NCBI RefSeq assembly: GCF_030253515.1 | Contig: NZ_CP124549.1 | Coordinates: 630,001-662,000, forward strand | DNA: 32,000 bases | Source: Candidatus Nanosynbacter lyticus | Lineage (GTDB): Bacteria > Patescibacteriota > Saccharimonadia > Saccharimonadales > Saccharimonadaceae | Reading direction: 5' to 3' | Shown here: piece after piece, positions 4,066-32,000 of the stretch | Layout: each line of letters opens with the position of its first letter | Position numbering within the stretch: the first letter of the stretch is position 1 | The notes under the pieces: generated by a model | The model's input: the letters and a program-made list of their open reading frames with translations, nothing else | Database searches by the model: none | Told to the model about the DNA's origin: nothing | Position numbers and translations under genes: made by a program

Positions 4066-5589
4066 CTACTCGGTAATAACTTCAATTTCTGCACCCAGTG
4101 AATTGAGCCGCTGCGCTAGTTCCTCGTAGCCGCGATTGATTGAATACACATCGCGCAAGATTGACACGCCCGGCGCCGCTAACATGGCGAGTAGTACCAC
4201 AACCGACGGCCGCAGCGCCGGCGGTGCCACGACATCAGCGGGCTTCCACCTTGTTGGACCGGTGATATACACCCGGTGCGGATCAACCAGTTCAATCTGC
4301 GCATTCAATTTACTCAGCTCGGTGAAATAAATCGCTCGGTTCTCGTAACTCCAATCGTGCACCAATGTCCGGCCTTTAGCGACGGTCGCAATCAGCCCCA
4401 AGAACGGCAGATTATCCATATTAATCCCCGGAAACGGCAGCGCGTGAATCTTGTCTTTTGGTGCAATCAACCTAGAGTGTTTCAGCGTAATATCCACCAG
4501 GCGAGTACGACCATTGTTGGCTGCGTATTCCTCACTTAACTCATATTGCAAACCCATTTCAGCCAAGGTTGCTAGCTCAATTTCCAGAAACTCAATTGGC
4601 GCCCGGCGCACCGTGATTTCTGAATCAGTCACCACGGCCGCCGCGATAAAGCTCATCGCCTCGATCGGGTCTTCAGACGGATAATAATCAACTGCTGTAT
4701 TGATATGCGACCGGCCCGTGATTTTCAACGTCGTTGTACCAATTCCTTCGATGGTCACACCCAATTTCTGCAAGAAGAAACATACATCCTGCACCATGTA
4801 GTTTGGGCTGGCGTTGCGGATGATGGTGGTGTCTGGTGACAGCGCCGCCGCCATGATAACGTTTTCCGTCACCGTGTCGCCGCGTTCAGTCAACAAAATT
4901 ATCCGATCACCAGTCGTCGGCTCGACGCGCGCATGATAATATTCGCTCTCAGCGTCCACCCGCATCCCAAAATGCTTCAGGCCCGACAGATGTGGCTCCA
5001 CCGTGCGCTTACCGAGATTACAGCCACCGGCAAATGGCAACTGAAAATCATGATATTGATGAAGCAGCGGGCCAAGGAACATGATCACAGTACGCGTGCG
5101 CTTGGCAGCAGCGATATCCATATCCTCCAGCCTCAGCCGCGCCGGTGGTATAATCTCCAGGTCGTTCTTTCGCAGCCAACGGGTTTTAACGCCAATCGAG
5201 TTGAGCACCTCAAGGATCCGGTTAACCTCCTCGATACGCGCCACATGACGCAGCGTCGTTTTTCCCTTGTTGAGCAAGCTGGCACAGAGCAGCCCCACGG
5301 CCGCATTCTTGCTCGTTTTGACCGATATATCACCAGAAAGTTTTTTACCGCCATGCACCCGAAAGTTCATCTTGCCTGAGTGATTGAGCGTAACGATGTT
5401 ACAGTTGAGCACATCACTAATCCTCATTAGCATCTCGACACTAATATTCTGACCGCCGTTCTCGATACGATTGATGGCACTTTGTGATGTACCAATGGCC
5501 TCAGCTAGTTGCGTCTGTGTGAGGCCTTTACGATTACGATTTTCATTGATAATAACGCCGATTTTTTGGAGATAGTTATTCATGCTCAT
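4066..5589 (-). CDS. murA: UDP-N-acetylglucosamine 1-carboxyvinyltransferase with an N-terminal XRE-type HTH domain (fusion)
   Basis: N-terminal ~70 aa: GLTQTQLAEAIGTSQSAINRIENGGQNISVEMLMRISDVL, an HTH_3-like sequence. This is followed by MNFRVHGGKKLSGDISVKTSKNAA and the catalytic loop FAGGCNLGKRTVEPH, both MurA-like. The start is taken as ATG 5589 on promoter geometry; ATG 5583 or 5610 are also possible. Confidence 0.85.
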   Translation of the reverse strand: MSMNNYLQKIGVIINENRNRKGLTQTQLAEAIGTSQSAINRIENGGQNISVEMLMRISDVLNCNIVTLNHSGKMNFRVHGGKKLSGDISVKTSKNAAVGLLCASLLNKGKTTLRHVARIEEVNRILEVLNSIGVKTRWLRKNDLEIIPPARLRLEDMDIAAAKRTRTVIMFLGPLLHQYHDFQLPFAGGCNLGKRTVEPHLSGLKHFGMRVDAESEYYHARVEPTTGDRIILLTERGDTVTENVIMAAALSPDTTIIRNASPNYMVQDVCFFLQKLGVTIEGIGTTTLKITGRSHINTAVDYYPSEDPIEAMSFIAAAVVTDSEITVRRAPIEFLEIELATLAEMGLQYELSEEYAANNGRTRLVDITLKHSRLIAPKDKIHALPFPGINMDNLPFLGLIATVAKGRTLVHDWSYENRAIYFTELSKLNAQIELVDPHRVYITGPTRWKPADVVAPPALRPSVVVLLAMLAAPGVSILRDVYSINRGYEELAQRLNSLGAEIEVITE

Positions 5590-5596
5590 AATGCAC

Positions 5597-5605
5597 AATA
5601 TATCA
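5597..5605 (-). promoter_or_regulatory. extended -10 promoter (TGATATATT) for leaderless HTH-murA
   Basis: The minus strand reads TGATATATT, then 7 nt, then ATG 5589. Confidence 0.45.
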
Positions 5606-5626
5606 CACATGATATATGATGTAAAG

Positions 5627-5635
5627 TGCTATAAT
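5627..5635 (+). promoter_or_regulatory. extended -10 promoter (TGCTATAAT) for glyA
   Basis: TGCTATAAT is followed by a leader containing AAGGAGGG 6 nt before ATG 5657. Confidence 0.6.
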
Positions 5636-5656
5636 AAAGGAAAAGGAGGGAGTGTT

Positions 5657-6928
5657 ATGCAAGATACACAGGTCGCCGATTTAATTGCGGCAGAAATAAA
5701 ACGACAACAACGGGGGATTGAGCTGATCCCAAGCGAAAATTACGTTTCAACTAGTGTACTCAAAGCGCTGGGTAGCATCTTTACCAACAAATATTCTGAG
5801 GGCTATCCAGGCCGGCGCTACTATGGCGGGCAGGACAATACCGACCAAATTGAGCAACTGGCGATTGACCGCGCTAAAAAGCTATTCGGCGCTGATCACG
5901 CCAATGTCCAGCCGCACTCCGGCGCCCAGGCGAATGAGGCGGTGTATTATGCGTGGTGCGAGCCGGGCGATACCATTTTGGCGATGGATTTGGCACACGG
6001 CGGCCACTTAACACATGGTGCACCGGTGACTCGCTCGGCCCGCGAGTATACTTTTATTCGCTACGGCATCAAGGATGTCGAGACTGGTGAAATTGACTAT
6101 GAAGAAATTCGCCGCTTGGCGCTAAAACATCGGCCAAAGATTATTTTGGCCGGCTTCTCGGCCTATCCGCGCGAGCTGGATTACGCCAAGTTTGCCGAGA
6201 TTGGCAACGAAGTTGGCGCTATGTTGATGGCGGATATGAGCCACATCGCTGGATTAATCGTTGGTGGCGTGGCTAAAAATCCGTTTGACTACGGCTTTCA
6301 TATTATCACCACTACCACACACAAAACCTTGCGCGGTCCGCGTGGCGGCTTGATTTTGTCAAAAGGTGTGGTCGGCAATCCTTTGAAGCGACCAGAAAAA
6401 ACTTTGGAAAACTTGCCAACACTGATTGACCGGGCGGTCTTCCCTGGCACTCAAGGTGGCCCGCACATGCACACCATCGCTGCCAAAGCAGTCGCCTTTG
6501 GCGAGGCGCTACGCCCAGAGTTCACGGAATACGCCCAGCAAATCGTAAAGAATGCAGCCGTTCTGGCAGATGAATTAAAGCGCGGCGGCCTGAAATTGGT
6601 AACAGGTGGCACCAGCAACCATCTAGTGTTGGCAGATATCTATGGCAGCTTCGGCATTGATGGTAAAATTGCTCAGGAGCGGCTAGAGGCCAGCGGCATC
6701 ACCGCCAACGCCAACGCCATCCCGAACGATACCCTGCCGCCATTCCGTCCAAGCGGCCTGCGCCTCGGCACGCCAGCGGTAACAACACGCGGCATGACGG
6801 AGGCGGAAGTCAAACAGATTGCCAAGTGGATTATCACAGCGATAACCGCAGAGGACCCGGCAGAATACGCAAAAATTAAGCAGCAAACTACTAGTCTTGC
6901 GGCGCGTTTTCCGCTACCATATAACTAA
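5657..6928 (+). CDS. glyA: serine hydroxymethyltransferase
   Basis: ORF 5582..6928 trimmed to ATG 5657 behind a strong SD. Motifs seen: LIPSENY, GYPGRRYYGG, and TTTTHKTLRGPRGG (the PLP lysine). Confidence 0.95.
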   Translation: MQDTQVADLIAAEIKRQQRGIELIPSENYVSTSVLKALGSIFTNKYSEGYPGRRYYGGQDNTDQIEQLAIDRAKKLFGADHANVQPHSGAQANEAVYYAWCEPGDTILAMDLAHGGHLTHGAPVTRSAREYTFIRYGIKDVETGEIDYEEIRRLALKHRPKIILAGFSAYPRELDYAKFAEIGNEVGAMLMADMSHIAGLIVGGVAKNPFDYGFHIITTTTHKTLRGPRGGLILSKGVVGNPLKRPEKTLENLPTLIDRAVFPGTQGGPHMHTIAAKAVAFGEALRPEFTEYAQQIVKNAAVLADELKRGGLKLVTGGTSNHLVLADIYGSFGIDGKIAQERLEASGITANANAIPNDTLPPFRPSGLRLGTPAVTTRGMTEAEVKQIAKWIITAITAEDPAEYAKIKQQTTSLAARFPLPYN

Positions 6929-6942
6929 TACTAAATAACTTG

Positions 6943-7064
6943 GGGGGCAAATCAGAAATGGTTTCTTCAAACAAAACTAAAGGTTTCACATTGGTTGAGC
7001 TCTTGATCGTTATCGTGGTCATCGCTATCTTGGCTGCTATTTCGATAGCAGCGTACAATGGTGT
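6943..7064 (+). repeat. left arm of the 122-bp inverted repeat (pilin RBS plus N-terminal 35 codons)
   Basis: By hand alignment, 118 of 122 nt are identical to the reverse complement of 7789-7910. Confidence 0.9.
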
Positions 7065-7380
7065 ATCCAACAAAGCTCGGGATAGCGAGAGGTTAGCCAG
7101 CGCACGCGACATCATCAATGCTGCCGCCGTGTACAACTCAGAAAAAGGCCACTGGCCGACAATAGCAGAGCTGGGGTCATTTAATACGATTAGGTTACCT
7201 GACCAGGTAAAAAGTCGCCTCGGAACTACCGCACCAAGTCCAACCGATAAAAGCAAGTATCTATACGAGTTGTGCGGAACTGCTCCAAACGTTACCGGAG
7301 CAAAAGTTACCTACTGGAAAGAAGCTATTGATGGACACGAAGCTCACGAGAAGATAGTCAGTAGCGGTAGCGGTTGTTAA
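6958..7380 (+). CDS. type IV pilin-like protein (prepilin, 140 aa)
   Basis: ATG 6958 follows GGGGGG. Prepilin signal MVSSNKTKG|FTLVELLIVIVVIAILAAI (Gly-1, Phe+1, Glu+5). C-terminal Cys pair (ELCG...GSGC). Only 29 nt lie after the glyA stop, with no obvious own promoter. Confidence 0.85.
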   Translation: MVSSNKTKGFTLVELLIVIVVIAILAAISIAAYNGVSNKARDSERLASARDIINAAAVYNSEKGHWPTIAELGSFNTIRLPDQVKSRLGTTAPSPTDKSKYLYELCGTAPNVTGAKVTYWKEAIDGHEAHEKIVSSGSGC

Positions 7381-7415
7381 AACAAAGAGACAAACAAACT
7401 GTTATGCTGCTCGTA

Positions 7416-7444
7416 TAAAAAGCCCCGGTAATTCCGGGGCTTTA
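7416..7444. terminator. bidirectional rho-independent terminator between the convergent pilin genes
   Basis: Stem GCCCCGG (7422-7428) / CCGGGGC (7434-7440), loop TAATT, with an A-run on the left and a T-run on the right. Confidence 0.7.
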
Positions 7445-7469
7445 GTGTAATAATACTACAGTAAGCTTA

Positions 7470-7895
7470 CTAGCAGTTGCTACCAGTAGTAATCACCTGC
7501 TCGTGCTGAGCACTTCCTTCGATAATATCTTTCCAGTAGGTAACTTTAGCACCGGTGTTGTTATTGTTTGAGTCCTGACAAAGTTCGTATTTGTACTTGC
7601 CCTTATCGTTTGGACCTGGGGCAGTGTTGCCTATATTATCCTTCGCATTCTTTGATAGCTTAATCGTATCAAATCCCTTGATTTCGGTATCCGTTGGCCA
7701 CTTATCCTTTTCAGAATTATATGCAGCTGCTGCGTTAATAATGTTACGCGCATCGGTTGCACGCTCATCATCCCGAGCCTTATTTGTCACACCATTGTAC
7801 GCCACAATCGAAATAGCAGCCAAGATAGCGATGACCACGATAACGATCAAGAGCTCAACCAATGTGAAACCTTTAGTTTTGTTTGAAGAAATCAT
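7470..7895 (-). CDS. type IV pilin-like protein (prepilin, 141 aa), paralog of 6958..7380
   Basis: MISSNKTKG|FTLVELLIVIVVIAILAAI. The C-terminal domain is homologous to the neighbouring pilin but diverged. It has a Cys pair (ELCQ...GSNC) and its own -35/-10 promoter. Confidence 0.88.
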   Translation of the reverse strand: MISSNKTKGFTLVELLIVIVVIAILAAISIVAYNGVTNKARDDERATDARNIINAAAAYNSEKDKWPTDTEIKGFDTIKLSKNAKDNIGNTAPGPNDKGKYKYELCQDSNNNNTGAKVTYWKDIIEGSAQHEQVITTGSNC

Positions 7896-7910
7896 TTCTG
7901 ATTTGCCCCC
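7789..7910 (-). repeat. right arm of the 122-bp inverted repeat
   Basis: Reverse complement of 6943-7064 with 4 mismatches. It covers the RBS GGGGG, the start codon and the first 35 codons. Confidence 0.9.
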
Positions 7911-7939
7911 TATTTTTAGTTAGTTATTATTGTAACTTG

Positions 7940-7968
7940 ATTGTAGCAAAGCGATTATAAAAGCGCAA
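7940..7968 (-). promoter_or_regulatory. sigma70-type promoter for pilin 7470..7895 (TTGCGC-17-TACAAT with TG extension)
   Basis: The minus strand reads TTGCGC (7968-7963), a 17-nt spacer, then TGCTACAAT (7948-7940). A second TATAAT (7959-7954) lies inside the spacer. Confidence 0.6.
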
Positions 7969-8070
7969 GCATTTTATGAATAATTCCCTGATTCGGCCCC
8001 TATAGCCTGCGAAAACAGGGGGTGGTGTATCTCGCCCAGAGCGCTTAATCTCGAAACCTGCCCGAACCCA

Positions 8071-8736
8071 CTATGGACACGAGGCGCCGGCAGTGCCGTT
8101 TACAGGAACATTGATTGACTTGACGAAGCGCTGACTGGAATATTCGATATTCTGACCCGCAACCGTCTTGGTTACCCCGAGACTGACTTTAAGTGTACCG
8201 TCGTTGATCTTGCAAACATTGAAATTAAGCACCGTACTGGTATCGATGATCGTTTCGACTGCCCCGTCCAACTGCCAGATACGGTCGGTGGCGCTCGGAC
8301 ATGAGCCATCGTACATCGTCTTGCGCTTGAGTTCCGAGCCACTCTGGAAATACTCAGTGGTATAGGTCTTGGCATCAGCGATAGCAACCGCCCCCCACGC
8401 CACGCCGCAATCACTTTTTTGGATCAGGCGCCGCGTCGAACTATAGGGGTTTTCGCTGGTAGCGAGACTATGTATACGCACATACGAGGACGTTGTTCCC
8501 TCAAGCGTGGTACTGAGCCGCACATCCGCCTCAATTCGATCAAGTGCCGTTAGCACATCACTCTGTAGTTGTGACTTGGCACTGGTGACCATTGACGAGC
8601 CAGTGAGATTGATGATTAGGCCAATAATACCCGCCAGCACCAAAATAATGACTGGCGCAATCGCCAAGATCTCGATCAGCGTAAAGCCCTGGCTGTGCTG
8701 CCGTCGGTTAGAATTAGCCCGAAATGTACGTCGCAT
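8071..8736 (-). CDS. minor pilin-like protein (prepilin-type N-terminus, 221 aa)
   Basis: Start ATG 8736 lies behind GGAGGTGG. Signal MRRTFRANSNRRQHSQG|FTLIEILAI. It overlaps the upstream gene by 23 nt. Confidence 0.75.
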   Translation of the reverse strand: MRRTFRANSNRRQHSQGFTLIEILAIAPVIILVLAGIIGLIINLTGSSMVTSAKSQLQSDVLTALDRIEADVRLSTTLEGTTSSYVRIHSLATSENPYSSTRRLIQKSDCGVAWGAVAIADAKTYTTEYFQSGSELKRKTMYDGSCPSATDRIWQLDGAVETIIDTSTVLNFNVCKINDGTLKVSLGVTKTVAGQNIEYSSQRFVKSINVPVNGTAGASCP

Positions 8737-9127
8737 GCACCACCTCCTGCGCTGGCGTTCCATAAGTAATAATTACCGCAACACGAATGACCGCGATGCT
8801 GTTTGGCACTTTACAATATTCGACTCGAGCACGTACTGGATCCGGCAATGTTGGCGTGGTCGGTGGTGTCACGTGTTCAGTCTTGACCGCACCGCTGCCA
8901 CAAACCTCAGATACTGTTTTATACAAGCCACGTTCACGTAGGATGCCGTAGCCGAGATTGGCAGCTTCTGAGGTGCGGCGAGCCTCGGTATTACGTGCCA
9001 ATACCGCCCCGTACAGCTGGTAGCCACTCATTAAAAAGATCCCGGCAATAATCAAGGTGATCATCAGTTCGACAACGGTGAAACCGCCCGCATGCTTTAG
9101 AGACGTTTGCTGTTGAGTACTTGCCAT
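8714..9127 (-). CDS. minor pilin-like protein (137 aa)
   Basis: ATG 9127 lies behind AAAGGAG. Signal ...KHAGG|FTVVELMITLIIAG. It overlaps the upstream gene by 31 nt. Confidence 0.75.
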   Translation of the reverse strand: MASTQQQTSLKHAGGFTVVELMITLIIAGIFLMSGYQLYGAVLARNTEARRTSEAANLGYGILRERGLYKTVSEVCGSGAVKTEHVTPPTTPTLPDPVRARVEYCKVPNSIAVIRVAVIITYGTPAQEVVHATYISG

Positions 9128-9684
9128 TTACCCGGCTCCTTTGTTTCTAAATGATAAAAAATCGTATAGCGCCGACAAGCCGCGCCCGCCTCATCACATA
9201 CACCATCCTTAGCGCCGGCAACGTAGATGTACGCACCATTTGGATAGTTAGTGATCTTGGTGTTTTCGTAATCATCTTTTTTGGCAAGCAGCTGACCCAC
9301 GTTAGCGATCGGATTGACACCGAATGTACCGTTAATCGCCGAAATGAGGCGTTCTCGATCCAGTGGACCAGTCTTGGCGGCACCACCCAGTTCGTCAAAC
9401 GCCGCCGCAAACTGCGCCGCAGTCATCTTGCCAGCGCCGCTAGCCCCGGAAACGTACGCTGGGTAGCCGCCGGCAGGCTTGATGACGTTACCGGCGCTGT
9501 CACGAATTTCCCGCGGATAGACGCTCTCGAGGTAGTTCTGCAAGGCCAGCACATCAGCCTCACGCTCCTTATCGCGTGCCGCCGCCTGATAATTACGAAA
9601 ACTCAATGTCGCGAGCACCAGCAAAATCGCCATGACGGCAATAGCAATGATCAGCTCGACTAGCGTAAACCCCCGTCCCTTCAT
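9097..9684 (-). CDS. minor pilin-like protein (195 aa), first gene of a three-gene pilin operon
   Basis: ORF 9097..9735 trimmed to ATG 9684. Signal MKGRG|FTLVELIIAIAVMAILLV. Confidence 0.75.
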   Translation of the reverse strand: MKGRGFTLVELIIAIAVMAILLVLATLSFRNYQAAARDKEREADVLALQNYLESVYPREIRDSAGNVIKPAGGYPAYVSGASGAGKMTAAQFAAAFDELGGAAKTGPLDRERLISAINGTFGVNPIANVGQLLAKKDDYENTKITNYPNGAYIYVAGAKDGVCDEAGAACRRYTIFYHLETKEPGKWQVLNSKRL

Positions 9685-9690
9685 ACCCCC

Positions 9691-9719
9691 ATCATACTCG
9701 GAAATATGCATAAGCGCAA
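9691..9719 (-). promoter_or_regulatory. promoter of the minor-pilin operon (TTGCGC-17-TATGAT), leaderless geometry
   Basis: The minus strand reads TTGCGC (9719-9714), a 17-nt spacer, TATGAT (9696-9691), then 6 nt (GGGGGT) before ATG 9684. Confidence 0.5.
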
Positions 9720-9731
9720 GCGTTTTGGCAC

Positions 9732-10751
9732 TCAAATTTCTAACGGTTCTTGCTGGATCTGGATGTGGAACTTATCGTAGACTGCCTGGATAATGGCGTC
9801 ACGTGCCGCCGCCAGATCGTGATAGCTAGTCGCCGACTCATTGATCAGTACCAGTGCGTTCTTGTCGTGCACCCGCATACCGTGTAGCAGTGCCCCCTTG
9901 AGTCCAGCCTGTTCAATCAGCCAGCCCGTCGGCACCTTGTGTCGGCCATCCGGCATGTCATAGCATGGGACATCTGGATACTGTTCACGAAGTTCGCTTA
10001 GCTGCCATGATTCAATCAGTGCGTTCTTGAAGAATGAACCAGCATTAGGCCGCTCAGTCGGATCAGGTAACTTATCAAACCGAATTGCCATCACCGCGTC
10101 GCGGATCACCTGCGGCGTAAAGGTCGTGATGTTCATGTCGGTCAAATACCGCTGTAAGCCGGCATAGAACGGCGGTTTTGGCGCTGCGTGATGGAGCTTG
10201 ATGATAATCGAGAGAATGCAGTAGCGGCCGCTCGCTTCACCGCGAAAAATACTATGCCGATACGAAAACCCGCACTCCGCTGCGTCTAAGGTCACCACCC
10301 GGTCAGCCAGCGAATCGTACGCCTCTAGCTCAGTGAGCACATCAGCAACTTCCTGGCCATACGCCCCGACATTTTGCACCGGCGCAGCGCCGGCTGTACC
10401 AGGGATGGCCGACATCGCCTCAATGCCGCTCAGGCCCATGGCCACCGTACGCTTAACCACCTCGTCCCATATTTCACCCGCACCAACCTTGATCGTTGCT
10501 GTCTGGCCATCATCAGTCAGCACTGCAAATCCCTTGATCCGATTGAGCAACACCGCCCCCTCAAACCCTTCATCGCGAGCGATGACATTACTACCGCCAC
10601 CCAAGACAAAAATTGGGATACCCTGCACCTTGGCACTGTTATATAGCTCTCTAACCTCATTCACCGACGTCGCCGATGCCATAAAGCGTGCTGTGCCGCC
10701 GAGGCGCATCGTCGTATATTGTTGCAACGGAATCTCTGTTCGTATCTCCAT
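9732..10751 (-). CDS. murB: UDP-N-acetylenolpyruvoylglucosamine reductase
   Basis: ORF 9732..10811 trimmed to ATG 10751 (MEIRTEIPLQQYTTMRLGG), because the longer form would run into the tRNA promoter. FAD-binding PCMH domain (VLGGGSNV) and SYRHS motif are present. Confidence 0.9.
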   Translation of the reverse strand: MEIRTEIPLQQYTTMRLGGTARFMASATSVNEVRELYNSAKVQGIPIFVLGGGSNVIARDEGFEGAVLLNRIKGFAVLTDDGQTATIKVGAGEIWDEVVKRTVAMGLSGIEAMSAIPGTAGAAPVQNVGAYGQEVADVLTELEAYDSLADRVVTLDAAECGFSYRHSIFRGEASGRYCILSIIIKLHHAAPKPPFYAGLQRYLTDMNITTFTPQVIRDAVMAIRFDKLPDPTERPNAGSFFKNALIESWQLSELREQYPDVPCYDMPDGRHKVPTGWLIEQAGLKGALLHGMRVHDKNALVLINESATSYHDLAAARDAIIQAVYDKFHIQIQQEPLEI

Positions 10752-11016: not shown

Positions 11017-12390
11017 CTAGACGATACCCTGGTCGATAACGGGGTATTTTTGTTGGAATTCCTCAGTTGTTGGCAATGTCAACTTGCCGTCTGTCATGAC
11101 TTTGATTTTACCTTGAAAATGATCATATGCCTCATATACCGATAGGCTAGAGGTTATCATCCGCGGTAATTTATGGATGAAGTCCATTGCCCATATTATT
11201 GCTGGTGTATAGACGCCTTGTTCGCCTCCACTAAAACCTATCAGCGTTTCTCCGCTCAGAGACCGCATCAACTCATCATGAAATACTTTCGCTGATTGAC
11301 ACTTAATTTCTTCTTCGGTAACGGTCGTGAGGCGCTCTATCGTGGCATCAAACTCGCGCCGCGATTGTCGTTGCTGTTCTTCCCGCTCTAGTCGGTCGTG
11401 TGTCTCTTTCACACCATCGAACAGCTGCAAGAAACAGTCCGCCAAATATTCATCAGTATGACTCTCACGCGCGTCCAATTGACCATCGTTAGTTTTTATG
11501 CCCATGCTAGTACGAACTTCCAGTGCGGCTCGCTCACGCTGTATTGCGTCATACTCTTGTTGGCACTCTTGGCACTTCTTGGCAAACATAAGGGCGTCCG
11601 AGTTATATCGCGGATCTCTAAATATAAACCGAATAATATCATTGATAGTTATTATCTGTGCATCAAATCTAAAGTTAGGGTCGACTCTGCTCGTCTCCCA
11701 AAACCACTGCAGACTAGATACCACCGGTGACGGCTTGCTCGCTCGCGCCTTGTCAATAAGGTCGAGGTTAATGGTAATGTTGTCGGGGCATTCATGTATT
11801 ACCCGACTAAGTTGTTCTACCTGCCCCTCAAGCCATTTTCTTTCAGTCAGTCGAAAGCCAATCGACCCAACCGCACCACCCACAACAGTCCCAGCTGTCG
11901 TCAGAAATGGCTCGCCAGAACCTAGCCATGACATACCTCCACCAGCGACAAAGCCGCCAAGTCCGAGAGTACCCATATCCCGTAGTGTTAGCCTAGTATG
12001 TCGATCTTCCCGAGCTATATCTTCAAGTTGCTCGACGATATTCACGAGCATAGGATCTTGGCATATGGTAACAAAGCCCTGGCTGGAGATGCGGCCGTTA
12101 TATTCAACCCTCTCAGACCCGGGGAGATCAAGAAAACACCCCCCTACAATTACCCCGTCCGCGATAACAAAACAGGAGTCCTGCACCTCTCTTGAAAGCT
12201 TCGGGTCAACCAATTCTCCATCCTCTAGCACCTTAATAGGTGTTAATATCTCCACGCTCCCTCGCGGTATGGCACGACGTGTCCGCTGGGTTAGTTGCCC
12301 ACTTTCATCAATAAAACCACCCTCCACAAGCCCCTCAATTGAATGAGGTGACTGCTTTTTAATCTCATTTCCACGACCGGGAAACTCCAT
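11017..12390 (-). CDS. hypothetical 457-aa protein with a central glycine-zipper hydrophobic segment and a C-terminal charged/coiled region
   Basis: ORF 11017..12810 trimmed to ATG 12390, because the upstream part overlaps the Clp gene and the promoter. Central segment: GTLGLGGFVAGGGMSWLGSGEPFLTTAGTVVGGAVGSIGF. No family recognised. It looks AT-richer than its neighbours. Confidence 0.7.
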   Translation of the reverse strand: MEFPGRGNEIKKQSPHSIEGLVEGGFIDESGQLTQRTRRAIPRGSVEILTPIKVLEDGELVDPKLSREVQDSCFVIADGVIVGGCFLDLPGSERVEYNGRISSQGFVTICQDPMLVNIVEQLEDIAREDRHTRLTLRDMGTLGLGGFVAGGGMSWLGSGEPFLTTAGTVVGGAVGSIGFRLTERKWLEGQVEQLSRVIHECPDNITINLDLIDKARASKPSPVVSSLQWFWETSRVDPNFRFDAQIITINDIIRFIFRDPRYNSDALMFAKKCQECQQEYDAIQRERAALEVRTSMGIKTNDGQLDARESHTDEYLADCFLQLFDGVKETHDRLEREEQQRQSRREFDATIERLTTVTEEEIKCQSAKVFHDELMRSLSGETLIGFSGGEQGVYTPAIIWAMDFIHKLPRMITSSLSVYEAYDHFQGKIKVMTDGKLTLPTTEEFQQKYPVIDQGIV

Positions 12391-12411
12391 ACTACTCTTA
12401 GCCACGTAGCT

Positions 12412-12440
12412 ATTATACAATAATACAAATATACTTGCAA
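12412..12440 (-). promoter_or_regulatory. near-consensus sigma70 promoter (TTGCAA-17-TGTATAAT)
   Basis: The minus strand reads TTGCAA (12440-12435), a 17-nt spacer ending in TG, then TATAAT (12417-12412). It lies in the 52-bp gap after the Clp stop codon. Confidence 0.65.
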
Positions 12441-12442
12441 CC

Positions 12443-14911
12443 CTACTGTTCAAGCGACATCGGTGGCGCGCCCGGGCCTGGGGACACCATACTGCTACCA
12501 TTAGCCGCCTCGCCGACCACCGCTCGTATCTGCTCCGCCGTGATAATCGTCGTTGAGCCCGGCGCGACGGTGCCAGCCAACAATTGTTTAGCGACGGTAT
12601 TCTCGACGGCTCGCTGCACCACGCGGCGCATCGGACGAGCACCGAGGCGCGGGTCGTAGCCAGCATCGACCAGTAATTTTTTACCCGCCTCTTCGACAGT
12701 GACTTGGATTTTTTGTGGCGCCAGCGTTCGATTGATACCAGCCAAAATGAGATCAACGACCTGTAGCAGCTCTTCTTTACCCAAGGGACGAAATAGCACG
12801 ATTTCATCAAAGCGGTTCAAGAATTCCGGACGAAATAGATTGGTATTAATCAGCTCGTTGATAAATGTTTGTTCAAACTGCTCCAGTTGGTAGCCACGCT
12901 CGATGTATTCGCGAATTCTCTCAGCACCAGCATTTGACGTGGCGATGACGATGGCGTCACGAAAACTAATGTCGCGGTTTTTCTCGTCGCGTAAAATTCC
13001 CTCGTCCAGTAACTGCAAAAGCGTCGTGAGCACCTGTGGATGAGCCTTTTCAATTTCATCAAGCAGTACCACCGAGAATGGTCGCTTCTGCACCTGGGCG
13101 GTCAGACTCATCGGATCATTCGCCCCATCAGCGATCAGCCGCGCCACGTCCTCGGCCCGGACAAACTCGTTGAGATCCAGCCGGATGAGGTTGCCCTCGC
13201 CACCAAAGTAGATATCCGCCAGCGCTTTGGACAGCTCAGTTTTACCGACACCAGTTGGGCCAAGGAACAGAAACGTACCAATCGGCCGATCAGGATTGCG
13301 CACACCGGCGCGCGCTCGCCGAATCGCATCAGAGATGACGCTAACGGCACGCGTTTGATTGATCATCCGTTGATGGATCAGGTCTTCGAGGTTCAAAAGC
13401 TTCTCTCGTTCATCGTCAGTCGAGGCGGTCGCGATCTTGATGCCCATGGTTTTTTCGACCGCGTCATCAACCGACTGGGCCGTCACCAGACCGGACGACG
13501 CATAGTGGGCTGCCGCCTCCAGCACCTTGAGCGCCCGACCTGGCATCGCCACGTCTTGGACGTAGCGCTCGCCGACACGGTAGGCTTCGGCGATGGCTTG
13601 ATACATGTAGGTCACTTTATGGCGATGTTCAAGACCAAGCAGCTGATCGCGCATAATCCGCACCGTCTCCTCAGGTGATGACGGCTCGATAACGATGGTA
13701 TTGAGCGCCGTCGCCAGCTGGGCATTGCGCTGAGAAATCTGCAAGTAGCGCTGACTATCCATGGTGAGGATAATCCGCAGCCTGCCCGCCTCCAGAATCG
13801 GCAGTAGCAAATTACTCAGATCAACCGAACCGACACCCTCCTCGAAAAACAGCTGGGCATTATCGAGGCACAGAATCACATTCTTTGATAAAAATGCTTC
13901 GTTGAGAATCTGCGTCACCAGTCCTTCCAGCTCGCCCCGACCGGCTGCCGCCGAGATCAACGACGAGGCGTCCAAGAGGAAAATCTGCCGATAGAGCAGT
14001 GATGACGGCACGGTTTTGTGCCCATCGATGAGCATCTCGGCAAACGCCGCCACGACCGTACTTTTGCCAGCCCCATCGAGCCCGACCAGCACTGCATTCT
14101 GTCGGCCGTTCGAGCCAAAAATTGTCATTAGCTGCTCCAGCGCTGCCTGATGAGCGTCTAGCTGCGCGATCATCGTCCCGCCCGATACCTGCAGGCTGAG
14201 GTTCTGGGCAAACCGGCTCAAGAGCGGCGTATAGCCAAACGACCAATCACGAGCGATACCACCGGTGTGAAGCGGCTTTTGCTTGAACTGCTCGATCAAC
14301 GACTTGAGGCGCTCATACCACATAATGCCACCCAGCACATCACGAAAATCAATTTTTAGATTTGCTAGCAGAGCGTCATGATTCGGAAATTGCTCAACAA
14401 TCGCTGCTGCTAACACCGCACCCGTTACTTTTGGACTATTGGTGTCACGCCAAATTCGCAGTGCTGACTGCCACAAAGCTGCTGTATCATTTGGATTATC
14501 TGAGGCAATATTTGTTAAAAAGTTCGGCGTGAGGCCCAGCCGCACTCCGAGGAATTGCCCGGCCCGCGACTGACCAACCGCCAGCGCGATCTCTTTTGGC
14601 GTCGGTCGCTGACTCAGGCGGCCCAGCACATCCGCTGCCATCACATCATCAATCGTCTCCGCTCGCGGACTCACCGCCATCGTCTTGAGATCGCCCTGCC
14701 ACCACACGCTGAGCATCGCTAGCGGCCCCACCAGACCAATCATCAACCAGCCAATCGGCCCGTGCTTGATCAATAGCCAAACGCCGCCCAGACCCAATGC
14801 AACAGCGACGAGCACCACCAACACATGCCAAACCGTACCAAACCGCGCCGTGAACCGCGCCTTTTGCGCCCGCAGGCTGTGATAGCGAAACTCTGGCCGC
14901 ACCTCGTTCAC
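12443..14911 (-). CDS. membrane-anchored two-ring Clp/Hsp100-family AAA+ ATPase (822 aa)
   Basis: The start is taken as GTG 14911, which overlaps the upstream TGA (GTGA) and lies behind GGGGG. Two N-terminal TM helices: VWHVLVVLVAVALGLGGVWLLI and IGWLMIGLVGPLAMLSVWW. D1 has Walker A GLDGAGKST and Walker B ILCLDNA (DN instead of DE). D2 has GPTGVGKTE, VVLLDEIEKAH and RPEFLNRFDEIVLF. I see no long M-domain and no IGF/L loop. Confidence 0.85.
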   Translation of the reverse strand: MNEVRPEFRYHSLRAQKARFTARFGTVWHVLVVLVAVALGLGGVWLLIKHGPIGWLMIGLVGPLAMLSVWWQGDLKTMAVSPRAETIDDVMAADVLGRLSQRPTPKEIALAVGQSRAGQFLGVRLGLTPNFLTNIASDNPNDTAALWQSALRIWRDTNSPKVTGAVLAAAIVEQFPNHDALLANLKIDFRDVLGGIMWYERLKSLIEQFKQKPLHTGGIARDWSFGYTPLLSRFAQNLSLQVSGGTMIAQLDAHQAALEQLMTIFGSNGRQNAVLVGLDGAGKSTVVAAFAEMLIDGHKTVPSSLLYRQIFLLDASSLISAAAGRGELEGLVTQILNEAFLSKNVILCLDNAQLFFEEGVGSVDLSNLLLPILEAGRLRIILTMDSQRYLQISQRNAQLATALNTIVIEPSSPEETVRIMRDQLLGLEHRHKVTYMYQAIAEAYRVGERYVQDVAMPGRALKVLEAAAHYASSGLVTAQSVDDAVEKTMGIKIATASTDDEREKLLNLEDLIHQRMINQTRAVSVISDAIRRARAGVRNPDRPIGTFLFLGPTGVGKTELSKALADIYFGGEGNLIRLDLNEFVRAEDVARLIADGANDPMSLTAQVQKRPFSVVLLDEIEKAHPQVLTTLLQLLDEGILRDEKNRDISFRDAIVIATSNAGAERIREYIERGYQLEQFEQTFINELINTNLFRPEFLNRFDEIVLFRPLGKEELLQVVDLILAGINRTLAPQKIQVTVEEAGKKLLVDAGYDPRLGARPMRRVVQRAVENTVAKQLLAGTVAPGSTTIITAEQIRAVVGEAANGSSMVSPGPGAPPMSLEQ

Positions 14912-26626: not shown

Positions 26627-26914
26627 CTATTCGGCAAACAGGTTCGTCCGCCCCGCCGGCAGACTAAAATTGGCGTTGGCGGTATCGCGCGTACGGAAAC
26701 TGTTGATCTGGTCAATCGTCTTCTGGTCAAATCGCGTCGTCTGTTGTTGGATGGTATCTTCTTTTGGATTCGACGAGGCGAGTAGACTGTAGAGCAGGAA
26801 AATTGCCACCGACACACCAACCACCACCGTCAATGTATAAAGGATAACGTGGTAGCGATGGAAAAACCGCGACACCAGTGTACCAATTTGTGAAATATCA
26901 GGTGAATTTTTCAT
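26627..26914 (-). CDS. small bitopic membrane protein (95 aa), last gene of the pilMNO operon
   Basis: ATGA overlap with the pilO-like gene. One TM helix (ILYTLTVVVGVSVAIFLLYSLL). Confidence 0.65.
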   Translation of the reverse strand: MKNSPDISQIGTLVSRFFHRYHVILYTLTVVVGVSVAIFLLYSLLASSNPKEDTIQQQTTRFDQKTIDQINSFRTRDTANANFSLPAGRTNLFAE

Positions 26915-27540
26915 CGAACATATACCTCCACATCCAGGGTTTGCGTACTCACTTGGCCTACCCCCTCAGCCTTGGACATGCTGACACTAGCGATCTGCAT
27001 CCGCGTCAAGTTCTGCTCAATCAAATGCATAAATCGAAGCAGCGCCATGTAATCTGTTTTTTCGTTGAGGCGAACCGACACTTTCATGCTTTTTGGCCCG
27101 GCAGCGCTGTTTGAACCGGAGCTGTTATTCGTACCCGAGGTGCCTGATGAACCCGAGTTTGACTTGGCTCCAGCCGAGCCTGATGTGAAGGTGAACCCAG
27201 CAATGCCAACGCCTGATTGATTGGCGTAAGTAGTGAGGTCATTGATGATCTGATTCTGATATTGATATTGCTGAGTTTCTGCTACTAGCTGCCGAGCCTT
27301 GGCAACACTATCCTTATATTTCTCCATCTCCTTTTCCAGCCGCGCTAGATTTTGCACCTTAGCGTCAACCGCTTTTGCCTCAGTCTGAATCTTAGAGACT
27401 TCCTCAGCGGTACCCTGCAGCATGGTGTAGCCGAAATAAACGATCCCTCCCATGCCGACCAAGATCAGTACTAGCGACAGCGCAAAGACGATCCGCATGG
27501 TCACCGCCGGTGTCATTTTTTCTCGTTTTCTCTCACTCAT
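26911..27540 (-). CDS. pilO: PilO-like type IV pilus assembly protein
   Basis: N-terminal TM helix and coiled coil, then a C-terminal domain. A Ser/Gly/Asn low-complexity insert is present. ATGA overlap with pilN. The assignment rests on position and architecture. Confidence 0.6.
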   Translation of the reverse strand: MSERKREKMTPAVTMRIVFALSLVLILVGMGGIVYFGYTMLQGTAEEVSKIQTEAKAVDAKVQNLARLEKEMEKYKDSVAKARQLVAETQQYQYQNQIINDLTTYANQSGVGIAGFTFTSGSAGAKSNSGSSGTSGTNNSSGSNSAAGPKSMKVSVRLNEKTDYMALLRFMHLIEQNLTRMQIASVSMSKAEGVGQVSTQTLDVEVYVR

Positions 27541-28097
27541 TGCTTCGCGACCTCCGGCACCATCGTCACATTAATTGTAATATTGATTGGGTAACCGTCC
27601 TTGTTTTCTTTTTCGGCCACCGCCGAGGCGAGATTAACATCCTTAAAGAGGTTTGACTGCTGAAAACTGTCCTTCAGCCGCAGTGCATCGCCATACGTTT
27701 TGCCGCGTGCGTTGATAGTCATCGGCGTGCCGAGCTTCTTGCTATCCAGCGTCAACGTTTGCAAAATTGTTCCCGATGGCATCGCCTGGGCAATCTTGAG
27801 TGCCACCTTTGAATATCGCACGTCTTTATCAAGGATTGCTTTAGCAATCTTGAGGTTTGCACTAAACGAGTCATAATCCTGCTGGACTTTTTGATACTGC
27901 AGCGCCCGACGGTTACCCGTCTCAATCGTCTGCTGAGCAGTCGTTTTTGCATGCTCCATGATCAAATAAATACCTACTGTCGCCACGATGAGTAAGAAGC
28001 CGAGGATTAACGACACCACGCAGTAGCGCCACAATATCACATTTGACCGGCCGGCGACAATCTCACGTTTAACTTTCGGCGGTAATAGATTAATCAT
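27537..28097 (-). CDS. pilN: PilN-like type IV pilus assembly protein
   Basis: MINLLPPKVKRE N-terminus (the INLLP PilM-binding motif) and a single TM helix. It overlaps pilM by 8 nt. Confidence 0.75.
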   Translation of the reverse strand: MINLLPPKVKREIVAGRSNVILWRYCVVSLILGFLLIVATVGIYLIMEHAKTTAQQTIETGNRRALQYQKVQQDYDSFSANLKIAKAILDKDVRYSKVALKIAQAMPSGTILQTLTLDSKKLGTPMTINARGKTYGDALRLKDSFQQSNLFKDVNLASAVAEKENKDGYPINITINVTMVPEVAKQ

Positions 28098-29139
28098 GCC
28101 AAATCTCCTCCGCTCGCACCAGTGATAAGCCAGCTGCTGTCATAAACCGCGGTCGTAGCTGTTTGGCCGGCGGTGCTAAATTATTAAAGTTCAGCGACTG
28201 CCACGGACTAGCCACTCGTGCTGGCAGGGTCAGCTCGCCCGTAAAGTACTCACCAAGCCCTGGCACACTACTACCGCTACCAACGATCAACACCTGTTCA
28301 AGGCGGGATTCATCCGGGAAGCGATCGGTGTAGTAGCGAATAACTTTCTGGATTTCACCGATGATCCGCTGCAGACTCGGCTTTAGTGCCTCGGTAATTT
28401 TTTCTTGGCGCGGGCCAGTGTTGAGGCCATTAAGCACCTTGAATTGGTGCGCCGTCTCGAGTGGTACGTTCAATTTTTTCGCAATGTCAAGCGTCAATGT
28501 ATTGCCACCAATGTTTAGACCACCGGTCACGCGAATTGCCGCATCAAGAATAGCGATATCGGTCGTCGCTGGGCCGATGTCAACGATAACTGTCGGCAGC
28601 GACCCTTCTTTAGTTCGCTCAAGCAGTCGTGCCACCGCATTGATACTCGGCTCAATCATCGCCACCTCAATACCGCACGATTCAACAATTGCCAGCTGCT
28701 CGTCAACAATCTTTTGCGGCACCGCGCACATCAAGACCGATAAATTTTCTTTGCCGCGCTTGATAATCTGATGATCAACATAAAGCGAATCGAGCGGCAT
28801 CGGCACATACTGCTCGACCTCGAGATTCACCGCCTCCTCAATCTTATTCTCCTGCTTGATCGGCAGCGCAAAGGTGCGCGCGTATGTCTTGGTCGTCGGC
28901 AATCCCAGTACCACGCGGTTACTGCCGAGCCGTCCGACAATATTCTTTTCAAACATTTGATTGATCTTGCCGCAGAGATACTCTGCCCGGTCATCGCTCT
29001 CGTCCTTCGCCGGATCCAGCTCAATCGCGCCGTATCCATGCACCGTCATCCGTGCCATATCGACTGACATTACCCGAACGCCGGCCTTGTTAATATCAAG
29101 CCCGATGATCGGCTTTGACTTGTAGAAAATATTTGCCAC
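28090..29139 (-). CDS. pilM: PilM, actin-like type IV pilus assembly ATPase-fold protein
   Basis: IGLDINKAGVRV and VIVDIGPATTDIAIL phosphate-binding motifs. The start is taken as GTG 29139. The alternative is TTG 29199, which abuts the pilC stop. Confidence 0.8.
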   Translation of the reverse strand: MANIFYKSKPIIGLDINKAGVRVMSVDMARMTVHGYGAIELDPAKDESDDRAEYLCGKINQMFEKNIVGRLGSNRVVLGLPTTKTYARTFALPIKQENKIEEAVNLEVEQYVPMPLDSLYVDHQIIKRGKENLSVLMCAVPQKIVDEQLAIVESCGIEVAMIEPSINAVARLLERTKEGSLPTVIVDIGPATTDIAILDAAIRVTGGLNIGGNTLTLDIAKKLNVPLETAHQFKVLNGLNTGPRQEKITEALKPSLQRIIGEIQKVIRYYTDRFPDESRLEQVLIVGSGSSVPGLGEYFTGELTLPARVASPWQSLNFNNLAPPAKQLRPRFMTAAGLSLVRAEEIWHD

Positions 29140-29170
29140 TATCGTTTGCCCACATCTCTTCTTTTTGTTA

Positions 29171-29179
29171 AGTATAGCA
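29171..29179 (-). promoter_or_regulatory. internal extended -10 promoter (TGCTATACT) ahead of pilM
   Basis: The minus strand reads TGCTATACT, with TTGGTT 17 nt upstream. Confidence 0.4.
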
Positions 29180-29199
29180 TAAGCATTTTGAAAAACCAA

Positions 29200-30426
29200 C
29201 TACCCCTTAATTTGATTTGCTAATCCAGTAATCGGCATCATCACCGCCGCCGCGATCAAGCCGACCATACCACCCATAAAGACGATCATCACCGGCTCAA
29301 TCGTCGAACTCAAACCGCTAATCGCTGCATCGACCTCTTCCTCATAAAAATCCGCCACCTTGACCAGCACCTTATCCGTCTGGCCCGTCTCTTCACCGAC
29401 CGCCAGCATCTGGCCAACGATTGGTGGATAGAGATCTTCGCGCTCATTGATAATCCGCGACAAGACCTCGCCATTCTTAATGCGCTTGGCAGCATCAAGC
29501 AATGAATCTTGATACACCGTGTTACCGACTGCCCGGGCCGTTACTTCCAGCGCCTCGAGTACCGACACACCCGCACCGATCAGCGCCGAGAAGGTACGGG
29601 TAAACCGCGCCACCGCCACCTTGCGAATAATCTTACTGACGATCGGTGCTTTCAGGACAAAATGATGGAACTTGACTTTACCTTTTGGCGACTTGATGTA
29701 GCGAAGCAGCGCATACACACCGCCAAATAATAGCGGGAAAATAATATACCAAAAACTTACCATAAACTGGCTGATACTCATCAGTATCTGCGTCAGGGCT
29801 GGCAGCTCCGCGTCCTCGCCCGCCAGATCCTTAATCGTCTTGCCAATCATCGGCAGGACAAAAATCATCAAACCAAAGAACGCCCCGATAGTGATGACGA
29901 TCAGCACCATCGGATAGGTCATAGCACTCTTAATCTTCTTTTTCATTGATGAGTTCTTTTCCTGCTGCAGGGCCAGGCGCTTCAAAATATCATCAAGAAT
30001 ACCGCCCGCTTCACCGGCGCGCACCATGTTGACATACACATCACTAAACGCCTCAGGATGCTTGCTCAGCGCATCAGCGAACGAGGTACCGCCTTCAATC
30101 TCCTTAGATACTGCATTCAAAACCTCGCGAAAATGCGGACTCTCGGCGTGCTGCGCCATTGAGTTGAGTGACCTGAGAATTGGCACACCGGCAGACACCA
30201 TGGTGCTCAGCTGCCTGGTAAAGCTAACTAGCTCCTCGGTCGGTACTGATTTTTTGCCACCCCCAAAACGAAACCCTTTCTTTTCATCGCCAGCTTCCTT
30301 GAGATCGACCAACTTCATGCCCTGAGCTTGAATGAGCTGGATAGCACTGGCGCGACTGCTGGCTTCTAGCTCGCCGTTGATCGGCTGATTGTTATTTTTA
30401 GTTGCGATATATTTAAATTTTGTCAT
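29200..30426 (-). CDS. pilC: type IV pilus platform protein PilC (GspF/T2SS-F family)
   Basis: Two T2SS-F repeats (FTRQLSTMVSAGVPILRSL and FTRTFSALIGAGVSVLEAL) and TM helices. The start directly abuts the pilB stop. Confidence 0.9.
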   Translation of the reverse strand: MTKFKYIATKNNNQPINGELEASSRASAIQLIQAQGMKLVDLKEAGDEKKGFRFGGGKKSVPTEELVSFTRQLSTMVSAGVPILRSLNSMAQHAESPHFREVLNAVSKEIEGGTSFADALSKHPEAFSDVYVNMVRAGEAGGILDDILKRLALQQEKNSSMKKKIKSAMTYPMVLIVITIGAFFGLMIFVLPMIGKTIKDLAGEDAELPALTQILMSISQFMVSFWYIIFPLLFGGVYALLRYIKSPKGKVKFHHFVLKAPIVSKIIRKVAVARFTRTFSALIGAGVSVLEALEVTARAVGNTVYQDSLLDAAKRIKNGEVLSRIINEREDLYPPIVGQMLAVGEETGQTDKVLVKVADFYEEEVDAAISGLSSTIEPVMIVFMGGMVGLIAAAVMMPITGLANQIKG

Positions 30427-32000
30427 TTATTGCTCCCTTGTTGCTCTCAAAACTTCCTCTAGCGTTGTCACGCCACGCAGCGACTTGACGAAACCATCCG
30501 TCTGCATCGTTACCATTCCTTCGTTGATCGCCTGCTGCTGGATCTCATTACTAGTAGCATTAGCGGTGATCATCTTTTGGATCGGAATCGAAATACCGAG
30601 GACTTCGTAAATACCAACGCGCCCCTTGAAGCCATTATGACCGCACTCATCACAGCCCTCAGGATTTGGTCGCCACAAATATTGAATCGTCACGTCGGTC
30701 GAACCGAGCGGTGTATTGCCGCCAATCTTGTCAGCCGCCGCCTGCTGCTCCAATGCATGCAGTCGCTGCATCGAGCCCTGCTTGAGGTTAAACATCTGAA
30801 CGATATAGGCGAGCTCCCCGGCATCCGGCACATATTGCTGACGACAATGCATACACAATCGCCGCACCAAGCGCTGGCCGATCACCGCCTTGACCGTCGA
30901 GGCGATCAAGAATGGCTCAATTCCCATGTCCAATAGACGCGGCAAACAGGTGGCTGCGTTGTTGGTGTGGAGCGTCGAGAACACCAAGTGTCCAGTCAGC
31001 GCCGCCTGCACACCGAGGTTGGCGGTCTCGCCGTCGCGAATCTCACCAACCATGATGATGTTCGGGTCTTGACGCAGCAGCGCGCGTAGTCCCGAAGCAA
31101 AGGTCATGCCAGCTTTCGAGTTAGTCTGGGTTTGGTTGACCCCGGGGATCTTGTATTCAACCGGATCTTCGATGGTTGAGATATTTACATCCGGCGTATT
31201 AAGTTCTGATAGCACACTAAACAAACTGGTCGACTTTCCTGAACCAGTTGGCCCGGTCACCAAGATCATACCGTTTGGTTGCGCCATGGCGTCTTTAAGC
31301 GTACTCAGCGACAACCCCCAATAGCCGAGGCTATCGAGGGCAACCGCCTGATTGGACTCGTCCAAAATACGCATGACGATTTTCTCACCATCAGCGATCG
31401 GCAGCGTCGACACACGCAGCGCGTATTGCTTACCCGAGACCTTGATCTTGAAGCGACCGTCTTGCGGCACGCGGCGTTCGTCGATTTTCAAATTTGACAG
31501 GATTTTGATACGACTAACCAGCGCACCCTGAACATTGCGTGGTAATTTATTCACTTCTTTGAGCACACCATCAATTCGGTAACGAACTTGGACGAAATCC
31601 TCGCGCGGCTCGATGTGGATGTCTGAAGCACCCGACTTGATGGCATATTCCAGCAGCAAGTTAACCGTCTGGGCGATCGGCGAATTCTCAGAAATTTCCT
31701 CTTCAGAGACGTTTTGTGAATCTGATTCAGCACCACTCTGGATTGACACCACTTCATCCAGCTCATCGGTAATGTTACCGCGATAATTCTCCAGGCAGTC
31801 AAGAATGTTGTTTTTTGTCGCCAGGAACACCTTGATGTTGTAACCAATCTCTTTCTGGATGAAGTTCAGCGCCTGTACATCATCCGGGTCTTCCATCGCC
31901 AAACTCAGGACGCCATTATCATCAGCTGCAAACAATACGACATTGTACTGACGGGCAATGTGCTCGGGGATACGCTTGAGAACGTCATCAGGGATATCCT
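30427..32000 (-). CDS. pilB: type IV pilus extension ATPase PilB (GspE family), 5' end outside the window
   Basis: Walker A GPTGSGKST, Walker B IIMVGEIRD, His box GHLVFSTLHTN and a tetra-Cys motif (CMHC...CDEC). The reading frame stays open to position 32000, with T2SS-E N-domain-like sequence. Confidence 0.92.
   Translation of the reverse strand, partial: DIPDDVLKRIPEHIARQYNVVLFAADDNGVLSLAMEDPDDVQALNFIQKEIGYNIKVFLATKNNILDCLENYRGNITDELDEVVSIQSGAESDSQNVSEEEISENSPIAQTVNLLLEYAIKSGASDIHIEPREDFVQVRYRIDGVLKEVNKLPRNVQGALVSRIKILSNLKIDERRVPQDGRFKIKVSGKQYALRVSTLPIADGEKIVMRILDESNQAVALDSLGYWGLSLSTLKDAMAQPNGMILVTGPTGSGKSTSLFSVLSELNTPDVNISTIEDPVEYKIPGVNQTQTNSKAGMTFASGLRALLRQDPNIIMVGEIRDGETANLGVQAALTGHLVFSTLHTNNAATCLPRLLDMGIEPFLIASTVKAVIGQRLVRRLCMHCRQQYVPDAGELAYIVQMFNLKQGSMQRLHALEQQAAADKIGGNTPLGSTDVTIQYLWRPNPEGCDECGHNGFKGRVGIYEVLGISIPIQKMITANATSNEIQQQAINEGMVTMQTDGFVKSLRGVTTLEEVLRATREQ

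Follow-up and report, generated by a model that had tools for sequence, protein, structure and literature searches.

Why should two pilin genes that face each other on the chromosome share an almost identical beginning, when the rest of their sequences has diverged to saturation? The question is raised by a 32,000-nucleotide stretch of the genome of Candidatus Nanosynbacter lyticus (contig NZ_CP124549.1, positions 630,001 to 662,000, hereafter the window). In it, two predicted type IV pilin genes, pilin A on the side of glyA and pilin B on the side of a cluster of minor-pilin genes, begin within two inverted copies of the same 122-bp block (the arms; coordinates in Table 1). An earlier note on this DNA had seen in the arms the substrate of ongoing homogenisation and also the ends of an invertible expression switch. 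We think it likely that the constant 5' block of these two convergent paralogs is homogenised by recurrent non-reciprocal conversion, and that there is no invertible switch. For comparison we gathered 39 related loci (designated by L numbers), of which 27 hold both pilin genes with their flanks. They come from human oral metagenomes, metagenome-assembled genomes of different species and complete genomes of ~0.85 Mb, represent at least nine species-level genomes, and have "Candidatus Saccharibacteria bacterium oral taxon 488" or Candidatus Nanosynbacter in their titles.

Each arm contains a ribosome-binding site (GGGGG), a spacer of 10 nt, the ATG, a 9-residue leader and the codons for the first 26 mature residues (the hydrophobic alpha1-N, a helix that is buried). 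Our recount gave the same 118 identical positions out of 122 that had been reported before for the ribosome-binding site, start codon and first 35 codons. A 44-nt core of the arm is present exactly twice in the window, with 0 copies expected from shuffled sequences. The identity sets in exactly 15 nt ahead of either ATG, at the ribosome-binding site, and beyond this point (-15) the upstream flanks of A and B are unrelated (9/39 matches). At the other end, the abrupt drop after codon 35 described in the earlier note is real: the proportion of synonymous differences (pS) between A and B is 0.076 in codons 1-35 and 0.80 (saturated) from codon 36 to the end. Among codons that encode the same residue in both genes, 1/33 differ synonymously in the first part vs 33/60 in the second (Fisher p=1.1e-7). 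The synonymous divergence (dS) along the genes, a comparison that the same note had proposed, is thus far from uniform, being 0.08 in codons 1-35 and saturated afterwards.

Such a block could in principle exist without any recombination, through purifying selection at the nucleotide level (on initiation, mRNA structure or codon choice) or, after a very recent duplication, through rapid change in the 3' parts. The arm stretch does include the ribosome-binding site and the first codons of a gene that is probably highly expressed, and in all type IV pilins the amino acid sequence of alpha1-N is under strong constraint. However, the other three pilins of the window (the minor pilins) have a nucleotide identity of 46-53% over the equivalent N-terminal stretch and encode the common GFTLVE motif by different codons, so that codon constraint does not explain the identity of the arms. 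A constraint common to all pilins, which had been named beforehand as an observation that would speak against recombination, was rejected as the cause on these grounds. Besides, loci L026, L027, L028, L030 and L034 have 16-25 synonymous differences in the arm stretch, which therefore tolerates change, and the synonymous changes of a lineage co-occur in both copies of one genome. Nor can fast protein evolution produce saturated synonymous sites past codon 35. We give an origin of the block without recombination almost no credence.

The evidence for conversion comes from the related loci. Within the block the two paralogs of a genome are closer to each other than to their orthologs, and the variable domains cluster by position, as is found in gene conversion. 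The mean arm distance from A to its own B is 4.5, and from A to the B of other genomes 10.2. The most divergent arms illustrate this well: L026 and L027 have 3 nt inserted in the leader (MVSSKNKVKGF) and ~20 synonymous changes, all of them in both copies, and their A arm shows 8-10 differences to its own B vs 20-25 to the orthologous A genes. On a smaller scale, a derived G is found in both copies of L012 and L013, and of L022, and a derived C in both copies of L021. In L036 and L037 both variable domains are of types other than those of the window, yet the first 140 nt are identical between the two copies (140/140), and their arm haplotype is that of the right arm of the window. The four sites that separate the arms of the window appear in non-reciprocal combinations in very close strains. 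Codon 2, given in the order A, B, is (G,A), (G,G) or (A,A), and in L009, L011, L019-L022, L036 and L037 the A copy has received B's T.TG patch. When 12 strains with the same cassette were compared with the window, the 724 bp between the arms had 0-1 differences and the 244 bp of the arms 1-4, which indicates that exchange between the arms is faster than point mutation.

The limits of the identical tract, measured in the window and 26 loci, tell the same story. It starts at -15 in all of them and ends anywhere from +68 to +136, the near-identical inverted arms being 98-151 bp long across loci. A fixed start and a variable end are the pattern of conversion tracts that stop at heterology at one end and, at the other, where divergence rises or selection acts. 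The concerted arms, non-reciprocal mosaics and variable tract ends bear out the earlier suggestion of ongoing homogenisation instead of a simple old duplication, and the arms evolve in concert, probably through recurrent gene conversion between the inverted copies. This conversion may depend on RecA. In the related Nanosynbacter TM7x, recA-recX adjoins the machinery of the second pilus, and allelic exchange is supported (PMC12206443); the corresponding recA-recX would fall past the end of the window. A literature search returned no report of this gene pair or of pilin gene conversion in Saccharibacteria.

How the homogenising DNA reaches the arms is a separate matter. Pilin DNA imported by natural transformation might recombine ectopically with either arm while whole cassettes sweep through the population, leaving to conversion within the chromosome a minor role. 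The stretch from ~6.87-6.94 kb to ~7995 is near-identical among strains in which the flanks differ by 6-15%, one arm haplotype stands beside unrelated variable domains in different species, the dS of the arms between species is far under that of glyA, and the whole pilin region is a recombination mosaic. All this would suit homogenisation from outside. However, the lineage-private variants described above for L026/L027, L012/L013 and L021 are found in both copies, which implies copy-to-copy transfer at some step, and the concentration of differences in the arms of same-cassette strains implies events after the arrival of the cassette. We therefore regard homogenisation mainly by imported DNA as unlikely.

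Several observations do count against conversion within the genome as a complete explanation. The arm distance within L028 is 14, hardly below the 15-20 found between lineages. Between species the dS of the arms is 0-0.12 vs 0.3-0.75 for glyA, which goes beyond what within-genome conversion alone would give and needs either horizontal spread of the 5' end or some added constraint. In sequence, intrachromosomal exchange and exchange through imported DNA would look alike. Moreover, most of the loci were found through an exact match to protein A or B, and the collection is enriched for one allele class; such retrieval fixes the protein of one gene, and does not by itself guarantee synonymous, intergenic or partner-gene identity.

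The inversion switch makes a different use of the same arms. Recombination between them would flip the segment 7065-7788 and swap the two variable domains between a glyA-linked context and one with its own promoter. The geometry would allow it, with near-identical inverted arms outside two convergent variable regions and different upstream contexts, and the RecA-type recombination that gives conversion can give crossovers too. In L028, codon 2 is reversed with respect to the window (I in the A copy, V in the B copy), which is compatible with a reciprocal exchange and falls short of demonstrating one. However, the order glyA, arm, glyA-side domain, hairpin, minor-side domain, arm, B upstream region, minor pilins was found in the window and in 27/27 loci, from several species, although these are assemblies, and those from metagenomes give only the majority form, so that rare inverted subpopulations formed through RecA would be compatible with them. 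Invertible elements are usually found in both orientations across assemblies. The glyA-side domain is of type A1 in 24 of the 27 loci and of type A2 in L028, L036 and L037, and in a neighbour-joining tree of the variable domains the glyA-side genes form these two clades, neither of which is ever found at the other position.

We also scanned metagenome contigs for the inverted junction on the glyA side, that is, the glyA flank followed by 120-135 nt and the start of the B variable region (the reciprocal junction, with the B upstream region, the arm and the start of the A variable part, would read TAATAACTAACTAAAAATAG N{122} ATCCAACAAAGCTCGGGATAG). There were two matches, L019 and L020. Both were rejected as inversions, as the glyA-side gene is of A type (SSGSGC) and a B-like tract merely reaches ~+135; the scan thus retrieved extended conversion tracts only. 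Among the open reading frames (ORFs) of the 32-kb window with 100 aa or more, none had a recombinase, integrase, invertase or transposase Pfam domain. Between the arms lie the 3' halves of the convergent genes and the terminator hairpin, with no promoter, and the arm mosaics are non-reciprocal, as when both copies have G, both have A or both have T.TG. From the 27 loci, an inverted state would seldom or never be the majority form, and the idea that the segment between the arms behaves as an invertible switch is not supported. The sibling-strain comparison that had been proposed for detecting it gave no inverted orientation, and with the position-specific clades and the lack of a recombinase in the window we consider the switch very improbable; the phase-variable reading of the locus was removed as unsupported.

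What we propose in its place is that recurrent, non-reciprocal homologous recombination between the inverted copies would keep their first 122 bp nearly identical. The tracts would stop at -15 because the homology ends there. Downstream their ends vary, and further on the divergence of the globular domains would block conversion, or selection would remove its products. The surface-exposed domains remain distinct, A being conserved and B consisting of many old alleles that move between strains through homologous recombination.

In mechanism the locus agrees with the tufA/tufB pair of Salmonella and Escherichia coli, whose concerted evolution is due to RecA-dependent gene conversion between inversely oriented paralogs. 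There too, expressed inverted paralogs are kept alike non-reciprocally, with variable tract ends and a stable orientation. The differences are that here homogenisation is limited to the first ~100-150 bp, past which divergence is saturated, that the copies are 0.7 kb apart and not hundreds of kb, and that what escapes conversion encodes a surface domain of which many alleles exist. A constant 5' part and a variable exposed part are common to type IV pilin genes in general. The pilE/pilS system of Neisseria shares with our locus a constant 5' and a variable 3' part, conversion between copies and the provision of homology by the constant part. However, the pilS copies are silent, lacking promoter and 5' end, and it is the variable part that is converted, whereas here both genes are complete, the constant part is converted and the variable parts are position-specific. 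Silent donors lack promoter, ribosome-binding site and 5' coding end; both A and B have the ribosome-binding site, ATG and leader, identical in the two copies, and both are intact in all loci. These complete, identical translation starts, together with the purifying selection on A, imply that neither gene is a silent cassette.

Two inverting systems also resemble the locus in part. In tfpQ/tfpI of Moraxella bovis and Moraxella lacunata the variable regions of the pilins are likewise opposed and the recombination sites lie in the conserved 5' coding region. That system has one promoter, one complete 5' end, an adjacent Piv recombinase gene and both orientations in cultures, in contrast to our locus, with two complete 5' ends, no recombinase within 32 kb and a single orientation in the window and 27 loci. 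The long conserved 5' regions of the opposed sap paralogs of Campylobacter fetus are, like our arms, substrates for homologous recombination. There the inversion is RecA-dependent and the genes are divergent, the only promoter being located within the segment that inverts; our two genes converge, with promoters that would be outside, and no inversion is seen among assemblies. Lastly, the pilA groups of Pseudomonas aeruginosa and the fimA serogroups of Dichelobacter nodosus have a similar conserved 5' end and old, divergent, horizontally shared alleles of the exposed domain. Their loci hold a single major pilin, sometimes with accessory genes, and not a convergent pair with a homogenised 5' end.

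With regard to the origin of the pair, the abundant sister lineages L030-L035 have the same neighbourhood with one major pilin only, located downstream of the minor pilins and converging directly on glyA (for example, L030 5001-5432 and L034 3001-3417). Since they carry just the minor-pilin-side copy, the glyA-side gene would be an added inverted duplicate with homology from -15, and by this comparison B appears to be the ancestral copy and A a lineage-specific inverted duplicate. A second, unrelated type of glyA-side pilin was found in L028 (4516-4950), L036 (3497-3931) and L037 (3497-3931), with 144 aa and a C-terminus ...TAGTCR or ...AGRCS, so that this gene must either have been replaced or have arisen twice.

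The two copies have also different histories of variation. Across species pilin A is under purifying selection, with a nonsynonymous divergence (dN) of 0.004-0.15 vs a dS of 0.19 to saturated. Pilin B, for which 2395 homologs were found, is hypervariable between lineages, with alleles of 139-149 aa and a between-allele dN of 0.4-0.5. The arms appear to be a few haplotypes spread across species (that of L026, with a between-species dS of ~1.1, is unlike most of them), and the B domain appears as a set of old and very divergent alleles. In strains whose glyA and minor-pilin flanks differ by 6-15% (L001-L018 were compared), the pilin cassette at ~6900-7995, with the arms, both variable domains, the hairpin and 85 nt upstream of B, is essentially identical, and the 724 bp between the arms are so at 100%, the island of identity extending 40-75 nt to the left and 36-85 nt to the right of the arms. 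Conversely, L019 matches the window at 100% over 5.6-6.0 and 8.4-9.2 kb and nevertheless has other pilin alleles, the replaced tract being ~6.0-8.4 kb. The breakpoints of exchange lie near the arms and are not confined there. An identical cassette in divergent flanks and the case of L019 indicate that pilin cassettes are exchanged horizontally through homologous recombination, in a generally mosaic region, and suggest a recent horizontal spread of this A/B allele pair. The intergenic stretch 7996-8070, between the last minor-pilin gene and the B upstream region, is 72-85% identical to every other locus, with dense differences from 7996.

As to the nature of the genes (Table 1), A and B are complete prepilin genes. 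PF07963 (N_methyl) matches both with E=9e-9 each, and both proteins have a 9-residue leader with G as its last residue, followed by FTLVE and a hydrophobic helix (KG followed by FTLVELLIVIVVIAILAAI), and two Cys at ~105 and ~140. In a search of the PDB, type IV pilin matches had E=1e-6 to 1e-4; residue 10 pairs with residue 1 of PilE from gonococci and meningococci and of the PAK pilin, and the alignment to the P. aeruginosa PAK pilin runs over residues 10-126 vs 1-125. These features mark A and B as predicted type IVa major-pilin paralogs. A second inverted patch, of 42 nt and 83% identity (window 7294-7335 / 7515-7556), lies over the conserved TGAKVTYWK strand near both C-termini and could be a second homology anchor. 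The inverted repeat also creates two mirror-image antisense ORFs, 6891-7256 (-) of 121 aa and 7591-7923 (+) of 110 aa, which are most likely not genes.

Table 1. Features of the pilin locus and of the associated pilus machinery in the window (positions are those of the window).
Feature	Position	Strand	Remarks
glyA (serine hydroxymethyltransferase)	5582..6928	+	Pfam SHMT E=2e-155; synteny kept in all related loci
Left arm	6943..7064	+	118/122 identical to the reverse complement of 7789-7910
Pilin A, glyA-side predicted major-pilin paralog, type A1	6958-7380	+	140 aa; C-terminus SSGSGC; Pfam N_methyl
Pilin A, part coding for the variable globular domain	7065..7380	+	~60% nucleotide identity to B, synonymous divergence saturated
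Shared GC-rich hairpin AAAGCCCCGG-TAATT-CCGGGGCTTT, candidate bidirectional terminator	7419-7443	.	folding
Pilin B, minor-pilin-side predicted major-pilin paralog	7470-7895	-	141 aa; Pfam N_methyl
Right arm, reverse complement of left arm	7789..7910	-	118/122 vs left arm
Pilin B upstream region, candidate promoter inside	7911..7995	-	96-100% identical across strains, neighbouring sequence differing 10-15%
Three overlapping minor-pilin genes, upstream of B	8071..9735	-	ORFs 8071-8763, 8714-9127, 9097-9735
Type IV pilus machinery: pilN, pilM, pilC, pilB and PilO-like candidate	26911..31935	-	Pfam PilN, PilM_2, T2SSF, T2SSE

The minor-pilin ORFs encode proteins of 230, 137 and 204-212 aa, two of them with the N_methyl motif and the third with a GFTLIE motif, and are separated from pilin B, on the same strand, by 175 nt. 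Genes for type IV pilus (T4P) machinery follow ~19 kb beyond the pilin cluster, with the PilO-like candidate (26911-27540), which has no significant Pfam match, preceding pilN. This layout of machinery and pilin cluster agrees with loci two and three of the T4P of TM7x (PMC12206443), and the machinery context identifies the cluster as the partner of the second pilus system. In TM7x, PilA2 is a 141-aa protein, the major subunit of the thin T4P-2 pilus, whose gene ends the minor-pilin cluster ~20 genes from the pilB2/C2/M2/N2/O2 machinery (PMC12206443). The window has likewise a 141-aa pilin (B) at the end of a minor-pilin cluster and at a similar distance from the machinery. By contrast, the description of the TM7x locus gives a single major pilin, and a second convergent copy, conversion or allele diversity go unmentioned (PMC12206443). 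From synteny and size we would call A and B PilA2-like. The equivalence to TM7x PilA2 itself is suggested by synteny and length, and synteny with the TM7x locus-three and locus-two genes suggests that A and B would be processed by PilD and polymerise as main subunit.

Two other genes of the neighbourhood deserve mention. A 514-aa protein (window 4066-5610, -), kept in all related loci, has an XRE-type helix-turn-helix fused to a full enzyme of the MurA/EPSP-synthase fold. A 597-aa ORF (window 11017-12810, -) has no Pfam match and in related loci has from 187 to 496 aa or is split; the part at ~11.2-11.8 kb within it is mostly 93-100% identical among strains that are otherwise ~90% identical.

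The expression contexts attributed to the two genes in the earlier note could be retained in part. Pilin A does start 29 nt behind glyA (stop at 6928, start at 6958), on the same strand, and would be co-transcribed with it, while B would be expressed from its own promoter. The hexamers and spacer described upstream of B are there, TTGCGC (7968-7963), 17 nt and TACAAT (7945-7940) as read from the minus strand. They match only 8/12 of the sigma-70 consensus, below the threshold of the promoter scan, and in place of a demonstrated promoter we keep a weak candidate. Similarly, the proposed bidirectional terminator folds well (-29 kcal/mol, z=-3.4, for the 101 nt of 7375-7475). It was missed by a simple consensus terminator scan of the window, and its T-run is good toward the minus-strand gene and short toward the plus-strand gene.

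Concerted evolution of paralogs is a known phenomenon, and what we describe is a new example in a poorly studied phylum, with some relevance to host binding and strain competition. The thin PilA2-type pilus of TM7x acts in the early binding to the host bacterium and decides the competition between Saccharibacteria strains (PMC12206443). This oral Nanosynbacter clade has a second convergent copy of the pilin, the constant part of both copies is probably kept identical through conversion, and one copy has a hypervariable and horizontally shared exposed domain; these features are candidate determinants of host specificity or of escape from immunity or phages. On the practical side, an inverted repeat of 100-150 bp can break or confuse short-read assemblies at this point.

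A broader possibility, which we put forward only tentatively, is that the near-invariant 5' block from the ribosome-binding site to alpha1-N and the short conserved flanks are a portable recombination anchor in the oral Nanosynbacter population. Through natural transformation, strains and even species would then exchange whole cassettes of variable domains of the host-binding pilus, and conversion within each genome would keep both copies compatible with the shared anchor. As the anchors are inverted repeats, occasional low-frequency flips or flipped insertions could also occur. If true, this would be a population-level system of pilin variation in an ultrasmall episymbiont, and could bear on its host range and on the competition among Saccharibacteria.

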